Sequence record: PV574406.1
Reading direction: 5' to 3' (one strand)
Origin: Pseudomonas phage SW_PA2862_11_24
Length of the DNA stretch: 64,000 nucleotides
Part shown: positions 38,300 to 48,377 of the stretch, piece by piece
Numbering within the stretch: position 1 is the first letter of the stretch
Layout: each line of letters begins with the position of its first letter
Position numbers and translations under genes: made by a program
The notes under the pieces: generated by a model
Databases searched by the model: none
Told to the model about the DNA's origin: nothing
What the model saw: only the letters and a program-made list of their open reading frames with translations

Positions 38300-38776
38300 A
38301 TGCTACATAGTGAAGCCCGGGCGATGGCCCTACAAGAGATGGACAAGTGGAGCCTCCTCGAACAAGGTTGGAAATTCAGTTTCAATCGCAGGATGAAACG
38401 GACGCTAGGCCGTTGTAATCACGCTAAAAAGCTCATAGAGCTAGGTTACAGCTACGTATCTGCCAATGGAGTGCCTGCGGTATTAGATACTATCCGCCAT
38501 GAAATAGCTCACGCTAAGGCGGGACCGCATCATGGTCATGATTCCGTATGGAAAGAGTGGTGCGGATTGATTGGCGCTAAACCTGAGCAGTACGCCAGCA
38601 CAAAGGAAAAAGTAGTCGTCTATCCGTGGCGACTGGCCATCCATCACGGTGGCGGCCAGCTTGAACTACTCAACCATTACGGTTTCAGACGGACTAGCAT
38701 GGCGAGAAAACAGGTACGAGGACGGCCTGAAACGTTGGGCAGGTTAATTTGGGTGAAGAACGAAAATAAGGGTTGA
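38300..38776 (+). CDS. SprT-like zinc metalloprotease
   Basis: SprT signature RTLGRCNHAKKLIEL...IRHEIAHA (HExxH)...GHDSVWKEWCGLIGAKP. Confidence 0.55.
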   Translation: MLHSEARAMALQEMDKWSLLEQGWKFSFNRRMKRTLGRCNHAKKLIELGYSYVSANGVPAVLDTIRHEIAHAKAGPHHGHDSVWKEWCGLIGAKPEQYASTKEKVVVYPWRLAIHHGGGQLELLNHYGFRRTSMARKQVRGRPETLGRLIWVKNENKG

Positions 38777-38800
38777 CAGCTTGGGCCATTCGCGTAGAAT
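38773..38800 (+). promoter_or_regulatory. early promoter family member (TTGACA-16-TAGAAT) with GGCCATTC/GAATGGCC palindrome
   Basis: ggTTGACAgcttGGGCCATTCgcgTAGAATGGCCctcaagcaa. Confidence 0.55.
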
Positions 38801-38850
38801 GGCCCTCAAGCAAAGGGAATCACCCTGAGCACCCACGCAGGAAAGCAGAT

Positions 38851-39117
38851 ATGAAAGCTCTTTGTAATCATCGGGCACTCTACGCGGCTTACAATCGTAG
38901 CGAGCTTGGTCGTATTGCGGTAGATTTGAACCGCTACTTCCCTATCGAGAAAGATGATGAATGGGAAGACGGCGCATATATGTATCGTCGCCGCACCTAT
39001 CTGGTGAAGCATTCGAAGGGTACAGCCCGTTGGCACAGTCTTTACTGCAATGGGATCGTCCAAGGCGTTGGCGTCATCTTCGACGTGAAATCGGGTGAAC
39101 CTTTCCGCACAGCATAA
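38851..39117 (+). CDS. hypothetical protein
   Basis: Internal ATG after aggaaagcagat; downstream of the family promoter. Confidence 0.4.
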   Translation: MKALCNHRALYAAYNRSELGRIAVDLNRYFPIEKDDEWEDGAYMYRRRTYLVKHSKGTARWHSLYCNGIVQGVGVIFDVKSGEPFRTA

Positions 39118-39130
39118 AGGAGATTCAGAA

Positions 39131-39274
39131 ATGCAAGCTTGGAACGTATACCAGAACGGACAGTTGATCGATATTGTTTTCTTCGATATTATGTGTGATA
39201 CCGTGGAGGTGCGGAAGTCTCTGGTAAATCATGATGGATACCCATCCGATATCACTGTAGAGGAGGCCGAGTGA
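39131..39274 (+). CDS. hypothetical 47-aa protein (not in ORF track)
   Basis: RBS aaaggagattcagaaATG. Confidence 0.25.
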   Translation: MQAWNVYQNGQLIDIVFFDIMCDTVEVRKSLVNHDGYPSDITVEEAE

Positions 39275-39561
39275 TGGATAACCTTTCTGTTAAAATCGTT
39301 CTGTCGGAACTGAGTTACAAGGCCTTGATTCAAGCCTTCGCCTTGCTTGGTCGAACGCTCGACCTAGACGAAGGGTTGGACGATATACTTAACCTCATCG
39401 CGGATGAAATCGCTTTCCGCGATGGCCTGCCGCCTTTCGCAGACGACTGCGATAAAACAGAATGGATGCTCCGTCGATGGGAATCGCTCCCGGTGGTATC
39501 GTACAATATCGGGCAGGACGGACCGATTGTCGCTCGGTCTATCGAAGTAAAAACGGCATGA
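39274..39561 (+). CDS. hypothetical acidic protein
   Basis: GTGATGG overlapping start. Confidence 0.4.
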   Translation: MDNLSVKIVLSELSYKALIQAFALLGRTLDLDEGLDDILNLIADEIAFRDGLPPFADDCDKTEWMLRRWESLPVVSYNIGQDGPIVARSIEVKTA

Positions 39562-39572
39562 GGGGAGAACTG

Positions 39573-39806
39573 ATGACCGTCAGAGTAGGAGACATAGTGG
39601 CTATCCGGGGCGACATTCGGAAAAAGCTCGACGGAACGTGCCAATACACGCCCGAACAATTGGTAGATGGTAAGTTCCTCAAGCATGCCGGCACGGGAGA
39701 AATATGGACTGGCCGAGTGAGTAAGATACAAGGTGATATGGCCAAGGTGGGAGGGGCTTGGCGCGGGATCGAATTCTATGTGCTCATTAGTGAAATAAAC
39801 GCTTGA
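39573..39806 (+). CDS. hypothetical protein
   Basis: RBS gaggggagaactgATG; the alternative ATG at 39558 overlaps the upstream stop. Confidence 0.35.
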   Translation: MTVRVGDIVAIRGDIRKKLDGTCQYTPEQLVDGKFLKHAGTGEIWTGRVSKIQGDMAKVGGAWRGIEFYVLISEINA

Positions 39807-39831
39807 CAACCTGACCCACTAGCTGCAAAAT
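39803..39831 (+). promoter_or_regulatory. sigma70-like promoter (TTGACA-17-CAAAAT)
   Basis: Consensus -35, weak -10. Confidence 0.3.
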
Positions 39832-39876
39832 AGCACCCACAGACAACGAAGACGCCGATAGGCGAGGAGAAAGCAG

Positions 39877-40005
39877 ATGCAAATGTTTTTCAAAACCCGT
39901 ACCCAAGCCCGTGCAATGGCCACCAATGGCCGTAAAGTGGTAGACAACGGCGCTCAAGCTGAAAAGCGCTGGGCTGTCAAGCTGAACAAAAAGGAGGCGA
40001 AATAA
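39877..40005 (+). CDS. hypothetical basic 42-aa protein (not in ORF track)
   Basis: RBS gaggagaaagcagATG. Confidence 0.25.
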   Translation: MQMFFKTRTQARAMATNGRKVVDNGAQAEKRWAVKLNKKEAK

Positions 40006-40313
40006 TGGCTAAGTCTGTCAGTGTAGATCGCAAGCGTTCCATCCTCGACGAAGCGAAGGATGGCAGTTTCTTCAGTGTGGAGTTTATCAAGGCGGACGGC
40101 ACCGTTCGGAAAATGACGTGTAAACGTCAGATCAAGTCGGCGTATGCTAACGGCCAGTTTGCTACCCGCAAGCCCACCAGCGCCGGCAAGCCGCACCTGT
40201 ATACCGCCGCCGAAGTGCTGAACATGGAAGAGGGTAAATCCGCTTTCCGCACTATCAACCTTGAGACTCTGACCCGCGCCAAGGTAAACGGAATCGAGTA
40301 TAAATTCGATTAA
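40005..40313 (+). CDS. hypothetical protein
   Basis: RBS aaaaaggaggcgaaataATG. Confidence 0.45.
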   Translation: MAKSVSVDRKRSILDEAKDGSFFSVEFIKADGTVRKMTCKRQIKSAYANGQFATRKPTSAGKPHLYTAAEVLNMEEGKSAFRTINLETLTRAKVNGIEYKFD

Positions 40314-40317
40314 AAGC

Positions 40318-46765: not shown

Positions 46766-46801
46766 GCACCCATACCAGCAAACAGCATCAGGACCGCCCC
46801 G

Positions 46802-47014
46802 ATGAGCCAGATCAAAATCCAAGAGTATATCGTAGCCGAGATCAAGGTTAACCATTGCGCTCACCTGCGCAAGGGCCAGACCATCCAAGCCCGCGATGAT
46901 CGTAGCAGTGAAAAGTGGATTGCATTCATGGTGGAACGCGGGTATAGTGCCTCTGAAGCCGCTATCCTGTTCAAAGACGCCCATGATGTGGCAATGCTCG
47001 AACTGGCAGCCTGA
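46802..47014 (+). CDS. hypothetical protein
   Basis: Internal ATG (MSQIKI) downstream of the promoter. Confidence 0.35.
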   Translation: MSQIKIQEYIVAEIKVNHCAHLRKGQTIQARDDRSSEKWIAFMVERGYSASEAAILFKDAHDVAMLELAA

Positions 47015-47041
47015 AGAAAATCCTACTAGGAGTACTGACAA

Positions 47042-47212
47042 ATGAAACGCCAATATACCGACTCTTACCAGTGCAAAGCAATCGACGGCATGATCTCTAT
47101 CCTCGGCAGCAAGAAAGTTACCACTCAAGTGCCGCCGTCGATGAAAGCCTCTCGAAACCGCCTGCTGAAAAAGATGGTAAAATACGTCAGCCGGTCAGGA
47201 TGGAAACCGTAA
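47042..47212 (+). CDS. hypothetical basic 56-aa protein (not in ORF track)
   Basis: RBS ctaggagtactgacaaATG. Confidence 0.3.
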   Translation: MKRQYTDSYQCKAIDGMISILGSKKVTTQVPPSMKASRNRLLKKMVKYVSRSGWKP

Positions 47213-47283
47213 CCGGCAAACTGGCACAGCCCCGGGCGTTCCGGGGCCACCCCGTCCGTAATGACCCCATAGGAGATAGAAAA

Positions 47284-47745
47284 ATGAATATTCTGTTTAT
47301 CCATAAAGACTCCGCCTACACTGTTCAATCCATCCGTGAATTCCTGCAAGCGGCAGTAGATAACATCCGGGTATCGGGTCTCATTGTAAACGAATATAGC
47401 GGCGACGGTTTGGGCCCTAACGCTCCAGACTACCGAATAGCTATCGTCACCCCGGAAGAGTTCTACCGCACTTTCTATATTCAGGTGGAACTGGCCACGC
47501 TGTATCAGAGTGATCCTCGGCTAGTGTTTACAGACGCTGACAGCCCGGCTTACAAGATGCGAGCCGAGACGGCCATGAAATGCGGAGAGTGGAGTTACAT
47601 GACCGTTTGGCAGCATATCCGTCTGAAAGATATGACTGCTATGGCAAGCTTGGAAGTGTGGGCAGTAGCTCTAGCCGACTCCGCACGACAGGTTGATATC
47701 GATCCCCGACCTAACGCTGGTAAACTCGGTCAGACGATTCACTAA
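47284..47745 (+). CDS. hypothetical protein
   Basis: RBS taggagatagaaaaATG; the longer upstream ORF-track extension overlaps the previous gene and a hairpin. Confidence 0.4.
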   Translation: MNILFIHKDSAYTVQSIREFLQAAVDNIRVSGLIVNEYSGDGLGPNAPDYRIAIVTPEEFYRTFYIQVELATLYQSDPRLVFTDADSPAYKMRAETAMKCGEWSYMTVWQHIRLKDMTAMASLEVWAVALADSARQVDIDPRPNAGKLGQTIH

Positions 47746-47761
47746 AAGGAGGTAGCATCAA

Positions 47762-48049
47762 ATGAAGAGCAAGTATGCAAATAACATCGCCACGGAATAC
47801 AACCTCCTCTGTCGCGTTCGCGGGATCACTTTAGTAAGCGCCCGTCGCCACCCTGATAGCCGAGTCGTGAAGGTGGCAGCGCTCTACGCCTGTGCGGCCT
47901 ATGGCCGTCCTTACAAGGACTGTATTGGGGCCTACAAGGCTGCTAAGCGGCGGGAAAAGGATATGCGAAACCCCGCCACATGGAAGCTCAGCCGGGAAGC
48001 TAAGCGGGCCGTGCAGTGGCTACAAGCTGCCATGAACAAACGCAAATAA
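47762..48049 (+). CDS. hypothetical basic protein
   Basis: RBS aaaggaggtagcatcaaATG. Confidence 0.4.
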   Translation: MKSKYANNIATEYNLLCRVRGITLVSARRHPDSRVVKVAALYACAAYGRPYKDCIGAYKAAKRREKDMRNPATWKLSREAKRAVQWLQAAMNKRK

Positions 48050-48054
48050 AGTTG

Positions 48055-48082
48055 TTGACAGCCTAGGCCATTCTTGTAGAAT
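48055..48082 (+). promoter_or_regulatory. early promoter family member (variant GGCCATTCttgTAGAATGGCCatcaagcaaac)
   Basis: TTGACA-16-TAGAAT with palindrome. Confidence 0.5.
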
Positions 48083-48122
48083 GGCCATCAAGCAAACGGA
48101 ACAACCCCCGGAGGGTTAGATT

Positions 48123-48353
48123 ATGCCAGTATTCAATATTGACCAATCCGTGACCGTAGAGGCCGAGGTGGAGAAAGGCTGCAAATCGCGAATCGCTCAC
48201 CTGTGGGACTCTGAGGGTAATGACCTTTCGTGCAAGCTGGGCGTTACTCGAACCGCTAACGTTAAAGCGGCTTGCGCTTACCTTATCAAGGACGCATGGT
48301 CCGTGGCTGTGACTACAGACTGTGGCGTTACGGTACGTCGCGGAAAGGCTTGA
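48123..48353 (+). CDS. hypothetical protein
   Basis: RBS ccggagggttagattATG. Confidence 0.4.
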   Translation: MPVFNIDQSVTVEAEVEKGCKSRIAHLWDSEGNDLSCKLGVTRTANVKAACAYLIKDAWSVAVTTDCGVTVRRGKA

Positions 48354-48377
48354 CACCATAGGCCATTCCTGTAGAAT
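48350..48377 (+). promoter_or_regulatory. early promoter family member
   Basis: cTTGACAccataGGCCATTCctgTAGAATGGCCatcaagcaagg. Confidence 0.5.

Follow-up and report, generated by a model that had tools for sequence, protein, structure and literature searches.

Phages of the PAK_P1-like (Pakpunavirus) and KPP10-like (Nankokuvirus) groups carry a repeated 41-nt sigma70 promoter-like motif, described by Henry et al. 2015 (PLoS One, PMC4309531), who located it in a variable early region in 5-7 copies in Pakpunavirus and 1-3 in Nankokuvirus and remarked on its conservation beyond the hexamers. The authors suggested specificity for P. aeruginosa phages, although a recognisable copy is also present in P. 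poae and P. gessardii phages. In the GenBank record of PAK_P4 the repeats carry promoter annotations, and the homologous region of that phage (gp080-gp124) is expressed at 3.5 min (RNA-seq; PMC5563952). [quoted passage not shown] The window analysed here, a single stretch of 64,000 nt, comes from a Pakpunavirus, a PAK_P1-like Pseudomonas aeruginosa myophage. Its repeat is the motif that Henry et al. had described; it occupies the same variable region of early genes and has an identical sequence in PAK_P1, PAK_P4, PaP1, K8, C11 and others; promoter identity and early transcription of the region are the previously known part. Identical elements occur in 158 Pseudomonas phage records, at 1-7 matched places per record. 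The string 'palindrom' has no occurrence in the text of Henry et al. (PMC4309531), and we found no description of the early promoter's palindrome in the literature searched.

PeSL (promoter-early stem-loop) cassettes of T4-type phages (Arbiol et al. 2010, PMC2839356; Comeau et al. 2014, PMC4122927) resemble the window cassettes in several ways: a stem-loop accompanies an early sigma70 promoter that is close to consensus and has an AT-rich stretch upstream; the copies are numerous and crowd into a hyperplastic stretch of small ORFans; indels and replacements have their breakpoints at the cassettes; and stem sequences vary between lineages. They belong to another phage family and share no sequence homology with the elements described here. 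Their stem-loop lies upstream of the AT-rich segment and has been shown to terminate transcription, whereas in the window the stem is nested in the spacer, -10 and discriminator and has no U-tract. In phage T7, stem-loops processed by RNase III lie between the early genes on a polycistronic RNA, and the upstream message keeps a protective stem at its 3′ end; these sites are ~20 bp long, contain internal loops and do not coincide with promoters, whereas the window stems are predicted and span 8-14 bp. Phage N4 has hairpin-form early promoters with a short inverted repeat centred near -12, but they lack sigma70 hexamers and require both the virion RNA polymerase that reads them and supercoiling-driven extrusion, unlike the near-consensus sigma70 promoters of the window; the sigma70-like promoters tested from the related phage PAK_P3 work in uninfected cells.

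A promoter with a palindrome across its -10 element

Motif counting and alignment of the copies recovered every repeat listed by the sequence-only reading at its position, giving seven canonical copies and three further related promoters (41150, 44340 and 46737; Table 1). The 21-nt core GGCCATTC-N5-GAATGGCC has seven matches in the window, on the + strand only, and none in 100 shuffles. A canonical promoter consists of an A-rich upstream segment, TTGACA, a spacer of 16 bp, TAGAAT, a GG discriminator and a CA-rich leader; the spacer length given earlier is corrected accordingly, and Henry et al. (PMC4309531) give N17. Each promoter sits in a short gap 65-80 nt 5′ of an ATG with a Shine-Dalgarno sequence. 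The proposal that these are early promoters agrees with their near-consensus hexamers, their place upstream of an ATG and the annotation and early expression in PAK_P4.

Table 1 Promoter elements of the window
Feature	Position	Strand	Promoter	Match to reference 48-mer	21-nt core start	Palindrome, stem or leader
Divergent promoter	38027..38054	-	TTGACA-N16-TAGAAT-GG (hexamers and spacing as canonical)			
Copy 1, early sigma70 promoter cassette	38773..38820	+	TTGACA-N16-TAGAAT	39/48	38784	GGGCCATTC-GCGTA-GAATGGCCC, 38783-38805; leader CTCAAGCAAAGG
Copy 2	40318..40365	+	TTGACA-N16-TAGAAT	reference	40329	40329-40349
Promoter without palindrome over -10	41150..41197	+	TTGACA-N16-TAGAAT	32/48		leader hairpin AGGCGG-ACAGG-CCGCCT
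Copy 3 (same as copy 2)	42793..42840	+	TTGACA-N16-TAGAAT	identical	42804	42804-42824
Composite terminator and promoter	44317..44387	+	TTGACG (44340), TAGAAT (44362-44367)			12-bp stem (44317-44328 / 44338-44349), then TTTTTGT; leader hairpin GGGGTGC-ATAA-GCGCCCC
Copy 4	45523..45570	+	TTGACA-N16-TAGAAT	44/48	45534	GCTTG-GGCCATTC / GAATGGCC-CT-CAAGC, 13 base pairs, 2-nt bulge
Copy 5 (promoter and leader same as copy 4)	46127..46174	+	TTGACA-N16-TAGAAT	44/48	46138	46138-46158
Related promoter	46737..46784	+	TTGACG-N17-CATAAT			GGGGCCC-GAAAA-GGGCCCC hairpin filling the spacer
Copy 6	48055..48102	+	TTGACA-N16-TAGAAT	42/48	48066	GGCCATTCT-TGT-AGAATGGCC, 9-bp arms, 3-nt loop
Copy 7	48350..48397	+	TTGACA-N16-TAGAAT	40/48	48361	48361-48381

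The 8-bp arms GGCCATTC/GAATGGCC are indeed invariant in all seven copies, although in three of them the stem is 9 bp and goes on as GCTTG/CAAGC. They had been described as bracketing the -10. Instead, the left arm lies inside the spacer, the TA of the -10 falls in the loop, and the right arm is made of the last 4 nt of TAGAAT and the first 4 nt of the discriminator. The palindrome reaches outward, GCTTGA at the -35 pairing with TCAAGC in the leader (40316-40321 with 40351-40356 in copy 2). Predicted RNA folds reach -18.2 kcal/mol (z -3.9) for copy 2 and -21.5 kcal/mol (z -4.0) for copy 4. The conserved leader claimed for the whole set holds in part, the full CTCAAGCAAGACAAAC being common to only four copies and the remainder having (C/A)TCAAGCAA. 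Each element is shown to be a strong host sigma70 promoter with a built-in hairpin-forming inverted repeat. The canonical stem is not a canonical intrinsic terminator, since it is followed by CUCAAGCAAG, with no U-tract.

The elements at 41150 and 44340, previously taken for degenerate copies, have the hexamers, the N16 spacing and CCTGTAGAATG in common, but the palindrome is absent from both. At 44340 the promoter and a true intrinsic terminator overlap: the -35 lies inside the terminator 3′ arm and the T-tract serves as promoter spacer (fold -36.4 kcal/mol, z -4.7). The homologous site is annotated as a terminator in the PAK_P4 record. The different palindrome reported in the spacer at 46737 was found; the Nankokuvirus TTGACG-N17-CATAAT promoter has a 12-13 bp stem CTTGACGGGGGTC/GACCCCCGTCAAG instead. 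At three promoters the stop codon of the upstream reading frame is the TGA of the -35 hexamer (copy 1, which follows a SprT-like gene at 38300-38776, 41150 and copy 3).

Complementarity and arm sequence among relatives

A palindrome over the -10 and discriminator would be ideally placed for occlusion, and a dimeric phage or host protein bound to GGCCATTC-N5-GAATGGCC could shut off or gate a regulon of early promoters. The arms are invariant in the seven window copies while flanks and loop vary, they are nearly invariant among Pakpunavirus and Nankokuvirus copies, and the perfect conservation of the canonical arms in ~150 genomes would also fit a sequence-specific binder, which may exist in the canonical lineage. 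Early transcription of PAK_P3 and PAK_P4 is shut down later, and the palindrome-free promoters (38054 on the - strand; 35850) would simply fall outside the regulon. Such a regulon would not be phage-wide as first supposed, since the repeats are limited to a ~10-kb early region and the 38054-38027 (-) promoter has no palindrome. We consider this operator reading unlikely. Promoters of the same build in relatives (phage EM; IMG/VR contigs) have arms that differ from promoter to promoter within one genome and are still complementary, with 3 to about 16 nt between them, a diversity of arm pairs and loops that one dimeric binder could not read. We recognised no HTH or other DNA-binding domain among 30 early ORFs, and the matches listed from bacterial genomes show no enrichment of the palindrome, being scattered across taxa at about chance level. 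In the PAK_P1-like group, binding to palindromes has been shown for one trans factor only, SrpA, a host XRE-family protein needed by phage K5 (You et al. 2018, PMC5945682). Its site, NTATC-N(0-9)-GATAN, lies 5′ of middle or late genes and has no similarity to GGCCATTC/GAATGGCC, which speaks against SrpA as the binder.

None of the 12 promoters of this build in phage EM has the canonical arms; the arm pair differs from one promoter to the next (GCGCTC/GAGCGC, GGCCACC/GGTGGCC and GACGGGCC/GGCCCGTC, among others), and complementarity is 5.25 against 3.80 when arms are swapped within the genome (p 2.5e-4). The mean longest inverted repeat among 58 non-redundant family promoters is 5.9, compared with 4.3 after shuffling (fold z -2.0); in 105 controls, promoters of unrelated phages that share the hexamers, the values were 4.6 versus 4.4 (z -0.6). 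Complementarity drops from 3.91 to 3.18 +/- 0.11 (z 6.7) when discriminators are exchanged among promoters, an effect specific for the reverse complement (z 2.0, 0.1 and 0.6 for the direct, reversed and complemented controls); the within-locus swap test over all loci was borderline (p 0.056). The inverted repeat is frequent, not universal, in non-canonical promoters: 26 % of 159 have z < -2, and only ~15 % have a perfect match of at least 6 nt. A compensatory T:A insertion (GGCCTATTC/GAATAGGCC) is seen, as are canonical arms around a 9-nt loop, in one contig. This comparison shows that what is maintained across relatives is complementarity of the spacer, sometimes of the -35 itself, to the stretch that runs from the 3′ part of the -10 through the discriminator into the first bases transcribed, and no particular arm sequence. 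Because pairing is kept with different arms and variable loops, the sequences favour selection on structure over a single sequence-specific repressor.

Cassette exchange and the upstream gene

Endpoints of homology blocks fall inside promoter intervals in 43 of 113 cases, counted as endpoints and not as independent events, while these intervals make up 5.9 % of the region. A one-gene cassette (48108-48350) flanked by copies 6 and 7 is absent from phage Kat, which has a single hybrid promoter copy in their place, and the promoter-bounded module 40376-41192 is 99.3 % identical to Ps12 where its neighbours are 89 %. The near-identical 40-50 bp cassettes also act as the sites at which early-gene modules enter, leave or are exchanged between genomes by homologous recombination, and this recombination holds the copies uniform. 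The copies being clearly homogenised and recombining, the palindrome might be a passenger in the repeat, possibly a quasi-palindrome perfected by template-switch correction, with the promoter alone functional; two of ten window promoters have no palindrome over the -10, and long perfect repeats are present in only a minority of distant promoters. A passenger would however be expected to decay, not to recur with new sequences at the same place in many promoters, and in the window copies the neighbouring spacer and loop positions vary more than the arms. We regard a palindrome devoid of function as very improbable.

Hairpins are stronger where a co-directional gene lies directly upstream. Non-canonical promoters directly after a co-directional ORF have z -1.69 (n=95), compared with -0.77 for those with no upstream ORF (n=37; p 0.012). 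An inverted repeat acting in DNA, as a cruciform or hairpin that makes the promoter supercoiling-sensitive or offers a structural target stimulating recombination, has no obvious reason to follow the upstream gene, except that cassettes are gene-plus-promoter units. A structure formed in DNA predicts covariation with no strand asymmetry, and we detected none of the asymmetry that would prove a role in RNA: fold energy is alike in sense and antisense (p 0.53), and G.T against A.C mismatches number 12 versus 6 (p 0.24). Single-stranded DNA folds of the cassettes are significant on both strands (z -4.1 to -5.4), breakpoints cluster at the cassettes, and the PeSL authors speculated on a protein recognising their stem-loop. 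Plain homology nevertheless explains breakpoints at repeats. Extrusion of a cruciform in vivo would usually call for more than GC-rich 8-9 bp arms around a 5-nt loop, and a role at the DNA level seems to us distinctly unlikely.

The window cassettes are best read, by analogy, as a compact counterpart of the PeSL cassette with the stem-loop nested in the promoter instead of upstream of it. We hold with moderate confidence that each is a compact early-gene junction, in which the hairpin of a shuffling promoter acts, PeSL-like, on read-through RNA. Because the start site is predicted to fall just 3′ of the inner stem, the hairpin would not be part of the RNA made from its promoter; only RNA reading through from the upstream promoter and gene would contain it, and that is probably where it acts. 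There it would attenuate, end or 3′-protect the upstream transcript, and we propose that each small early gene would in this way be expressed from its own promoter. The hairpin is missing from all four window promoters that have no upstream gene. One of these provides an internal contrast: the divergent promoter at 38027..38054 (-) has neither a palindrome across its -10 nor a co-directional gene upstream, and corresponds to 'putative promoter_03' of the antisense RNA as16 in PAK_P4.

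Copies of the early promoter and their inverted repeat

The 64-kb window holds seven copies of the core GGCCATTC-N5-GAATGGCC (GGCCATTC being the left arm), always on the + strand and between 38784 and 48381, and 100 shuffles gave none; this bears out the claim of a sequence-only reading that a promoter with a palindrome is repeated here. Two of the copies have identical 48-mers and the other five match that 48-mer at 39-44 of 48 positions, while three related promoters share parts of the frame (Table). A neutral consensus scan ranked these sites top in the region. Eight copies match the sigma70 consensus at 11 of 12 positions with a spacer of 16 bp, a length that corrects the earlier reading, and the promoters at 44340 (N16) and 46737 (N17) match at 10 of 12. 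Each copy begins at, or a few bases from, the point where the preceding gene stops, and lies in a non-coding gap, 65-80 nt ahead of an ATG with a Shine-Dalgarno sequence. At four promoters (38776, 41153, 42796, 48353) the preceding gene uses the TGA of the -35 hexamer TTGACA as its stop codon, with no spare bases between coding sequence and promoter. In their hexamers, spacing and gene position these elements are sigma70-type promoters, as had been proposed, and being near-consensus sigma70 promoters they were rejected as N4-type hairpin promoters. Outside the early region, two further sigma70-like promoters of near-consensus sequence were observed in divergent orientation.

Coordinates of promoter copies and other features
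Feature	Sequence	Position	Strand	Remark
Copy 1	window	38773	+	
Copy 2	window	40318	+	48-mer identical to copy 3
Copy 3	window	42793	+	48-mer identical to copy 2
Copy 4	window	45523	+	
Copy 5	window	46127	+	
Copy 6	window	48055	+	
Copy 7	window	48350	+	
Related promoter	window	41150		TTGAC(A/G)-N16-TAGAAT and CCTGTAGAATG kept, palindrome lost
Composite terminator/promoter	window	44317-44356 (hairpin), 44340 (promoter)	+	12-bp stem then UUUUUGU; TTGAC(A/G)-N16-TAGAAT and CCTGTAGAATG kept, palindrome lost
Related promoter	window	46737		TTGACG-N17-CATAAT; spacer holds GGGGCCC-GAAAA-GGGCCCC
Leader hairpin	window	38812-38826		
Leader hairpin	window	41190-41206		
Leader hairpin	window	44378-44395		
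Leader hairpin	window	48392-48406		
Divergent promoter	window	10978-11006	-	TTGACA-N17-CAGAAT
Divergent promoter	window	11336-11364	+	TTGACA-N17-TAGAGT
Group I catalytic intron	window	19069-19337	+	RF00028, complete
Module shared with Ps12	window	40376-41192		promoter-bounded
One-gene segment	window	48108-48350		between copies 6 and 7
Pbunavirus-like fragment	window	48424-48500	+	77 nt just 3' of copy 7
Early region, phage EM	L396, NC_073601	7647-17237		about 12 promoters
Cassette, phage Boevelstad	L123	12001		host P. poae
Cassette, vB_PseuGesM_254	L126	11982		host P. gessardii

The promoter has however been published before. Henry et al. 2015 (PMC4309531) described a 41-nt repeat present in 5-6 copies within an 11-kb variable region of PAK_P1-like phages; the repeat contains a sigma70 promoter that is conserved, unusually perfectly so in the bases around its hexamers, and our element agrees with that description in sequence, in its place in the early variable region and in the PAK_P1-like genome that carries it. 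[quoted passage not shown] Taken together, these reports establish the repeated early promoter as already known. A palindrome or inverted repeat is not mentioned in Henry et al. 2015 or in the PaP1, PAK_P3 RNA-seq and ONT-cappable-seq papers, and within the phage literature searched only the PaP1 promoter table prints the arm sequences. No Rfam family was matched at the promoters; the sole family in the window at its gathering score is a group I catalytic intron (74.5 bits, E 4.5e-17).

The window region is 98 % identical to that of Pakpunavirus vB_Pae_Kat, with approximately 280 Pseudomonas phage records matched. The 48-mer is present in 158 records, all of Pseudomonas phages, at 4-7 copies per record in Pakpunavirus and 1-3 in Nankokuvirus, with 100 % matches in PAK_P4, PaP1, C2-10_Ab1, K8 and others. 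Copies with a free left arm were also sought in metagenomes, with 0 matches. One recognisable cassette copy each was observed in Boevelstad and vB_PseuGesM_254, with the leader CTCAAGCAAGACAAAC and arms that are changed yet still pair; their hosts argue against an earlier suggestion that the element is specific to P. aeruginosa phages.

The right arm is made up of four bases from the 3' end of the -10 hexamer and the next four, which open the discriminator. The arms therefore overlap the -10, in contrast to the sequence-only reading that they bracket it; of the shared leader which that reading proposed, the full length is common to only four copies. On folding, 40318-type copies pair GCUUGA (the opening UUGA of the -35 hexamer preceded by two bases) with UCAAGC in the conserved leader, enclosing the inner stem (-18.2 kcal/mol, z -3.9), and this pairing with the -35 region explains in part the conservation of the leader. 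In the 45523-type copies a 2-nt bulge interrupts a stem of 13 base pairs (-21.5 kcal/mol, z -4.0). Folds of single-stranded DNA were significant on both strands. Extra hairpins, which differ between copies (for example AGGCGG-ACAGG-CCGCCT and GGGGTGC-ATAA-GCGCCCC), lie a few bases past the predicted start at four promoters and may be 5' stabilisers.

Pairing across the -10 hexamer in related phages

We compared promoters chosen by the same frame, with the palindrome no requirement, from phages PAK_P4, Ps12, CHA_P1, PAK_P3, Boevelstad, vB_PseuGesM_254, EM, HHBS18_1 and JG003 and from IMG/VR contigs of 85-108 kb. Controls were unrelated IMG/VR loci with TTGACA-N16-TAGAATGG from the first IMG/VR scan, which are mostly chance matches. 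In family promoters the longest inverted repeat across the -10 averaged 5.9 in length against 4.3 in shuffles (fold z -2.0), and in controls 4.6 against 4.4 (fold z -0.6). With the canonical copies left out, 159 promoters had a mean z of -1.4, 26 % of them falling below -2. Arm pairs seen in relatives include TGGCCTATTC/GAATAGGCCA, GGCTCATTC/GAATGAGCC, GCCCATTC/GAATGGGC, TGGCCCC/GGGGCCA, TTGACCATTCT/AGAATGGTCAA and CTTGACGGGGGTC/GACCCCCGTCAAG, with loops of 3 to about 16 nt across relatives. When the spacer of each promoter was matched to the discriminator of another, complementarity fell from 3.91 to 3.18 +/- 0.11 (z 6.7), an effect seen for the reverse complement alone, so that base composition is ruled out as its cause; swaps confined within a locus were borderline (p 0.056). 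The clearest case is EM, a P. aeruginosa phage and divergent Pakpunavirus, in which twelve early promoters have the same frame, none with GGCCATTC, and most have a complementary arm pair of their own, with complementarity of 5.25 against 3.80 in within-genome swaps (p 2.5e-4). The evidence favours selection for pairing.

Arrays of TTGACA-N16/17-TAGAAT promoters with a conserved GCCGATAATAG in their spacers were observed in four IMG/VR contigs of a different phage group (L017, L045, L051, L077), and are a further case of extra conservation within promoter spacers.

The sequence-only reading had proposed that a dimeric repressor or a host factor recognises the palindrome over the -10 as the operator of a regulon. 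The seven window copies do share the same half-sites and spacing (a loop of 5, or 3 when extended), and their arms are more conserved than adjacent spacer and loop positions. However, the arms differ at the promoters of EM, and the IMG/VR contig L014 has the canonical arms around a 9-nt loop, beside GGCCTATTC/GAATAGGCC, a compensatory T:A insertion variant; one dimeric sequence-specific repressor would be unable to read such a set of arm pairs and loop lengths. Pfam found no DNA-binding domain in 30 early ORFs, matching only SprT-like, DUF7449, DUF7227 and, weakly, WYL_2. The regulon is not supported and we consider an operator of this kind unlikely. A small novel DNA-binding protein among the early ORFs is possible, as is a binder specific to the canonical lineage given the stronger conservation of the arms there. 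SrpA, a host factor for the related phage K5 (PMC5945682), was rejected as binder, having an unrelated motif, other genes and no site match, as was an EM ORF annotated as 'putative transcriptional regulator of RNA polymerase', with no Pfam match and no homologue in the window. A bacterial genome scan with the 16-base palindrome gave at least 120 matches, which among those listed were scattered over taxa at about chance level.

A predicted stem-loop in read-through RNA

Fold energies of sense and antisense strands did not differ (p 0.53), and G.T against A.C mismatches in the best stems numbered 10:6 (p 0.45) and then 12:6 (p 0.24), neither significant. Wobble-type variants of the canonical arm recur, namely GGCCGTTC and GGGCTGTTC, the latter with two tandem wobbles; with the mismatch counts they lean towards the RNA level, a tendency and not a result. 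Non-canonical promoters directly after a co-directional ORF had a z of -1.69 (n=95) against -0.77 (n=37) for those with no upstream ORF (p 0.012), and in the window all four strong promoters that have no upstream gene, including a - strand twin at 38054, are free of a hairpin. Both associations speak for a role in RNA that comes from upstream. Transcription is predicted to start approximately 7-8 nt past TAGAAT, beyond the inner stem, which would therefore lie outside the promoter's own transcript and in read-through RNA only.

The canonical stem was rejected as an intrinsic terminator, the sequence that follows it being CUCAAGCAAG instead of a U-tract, and this argues against a simple terminator role. 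Separate from it, the hairpin at 44340 is a canonical intrinsic terminator whose 3' arm contains the -35 hexamer and whose U-tract doubles as the promoter spacer; a terminator is annotated at the homologous site in the PAK_P4 record.

In the PeSL (promoter-early stem-loop) cassettes of T4-type phages, a near-consensus sigma70 promoter is joined by an AT-rich segment and a transcription-terminating stem-loop; the cassettes are located in hyperplastic regions where they mediate modular shuffling (PMC2839356, PMC4122927). The cassettes described here likewise have a near-consensus sigma70 early promoter and an AT-rich upstream segment. However, their stem-loop (z about -4) lies inside the promoter, whereas that of PeSL lies upstream of it, an arrangement approached only at 44340, the sole copy in which the stem starts upstream of the promoter. 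PeSL stem-loops terminate, whereas here a canonical terminator is present at the 44340 copy alone. As sequence homology to PeSL is lacking, we class the element as an analogue from outside that family.

The mechanism best supported is that of a promoter/stem-loop cassette of the PeSL kind, with a hairpin that would act on read-through RNA, and we judge it evenly balanced between right and wrong. Our confidence is higher for selection on structure over sequence and for the recombination junctions than for this mechanism as a whole, and lower for the RNA-level role. More tentatively, and with the balance tilted against it, the early sigma70 promoters of a broad group of 85-108-kb Pseudomonas-type myophages might be dual-use elements. 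They would recruit the host polymerase as DNA, while in read-through RNA the same bases would fold into a covarying stem-loop at which the upstream transcript is ended or processed, near the next start and without a U-tract; such a promoter-nested insulator would also define portable one-gene cassettes. New here are the hairpin embedded in the promoter, the covariation of that hairpin in a broad group of phages and the position of the cassettes at mosaic boundaries.

Cassettes as junctions of early-gene exchange

The window from 37.5 to 49.5 kb was aligned to 11 related loci. Endpoints of homology blocks, which are not independent of one another, fell inside the ten promoter intervals in 43 of 113 cases, those intervals making up 5.9 % of the region, and nearly all promoters are a breakpoint in at least one comparison. 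The one-gene segment between copies 6 and 7 is absent from Kat, where a single hybrid copy is left. The module shared with Ps12 is 99.3 % identical to that phage, its neighbours about 89 %, which suggests a recent cassette exchange. In Nankokuvirus the genes around 46.2-47.0 kb stand in a permuted order whose junctions lie at promoters. Coincidence of indel and replacement breakpoints with the cassettes is a further likeness to PeSL.

The previously unexplained extra conservation around the hexamers now has a structural basis, and the cassettes appear as seams of early-gene shuffling, their positions predicting swap sites for accessory early genes, candidates for host take-over and anti-defence functions. 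Should the hairpin act at the level of read-through RNA, tandem transcription units would be insulated in a very compact manner, and the PeSL idea of regulatory cassettes linking exchange modules would be extended beyond T4-type phages. The phages concerned are of therapeutic use against P. aeruginosa, and for engineering the 48-bp unit would offer a strong promoter and an insulator ready-made in one piece.

The fragment just 3' of copy 7 matches many otherwise unrelated Pbunavirus (PB1-like) phages of 66 kb at approximately 90 % identity, and looks like an early-gene fragment traded between phage groups with a common host.
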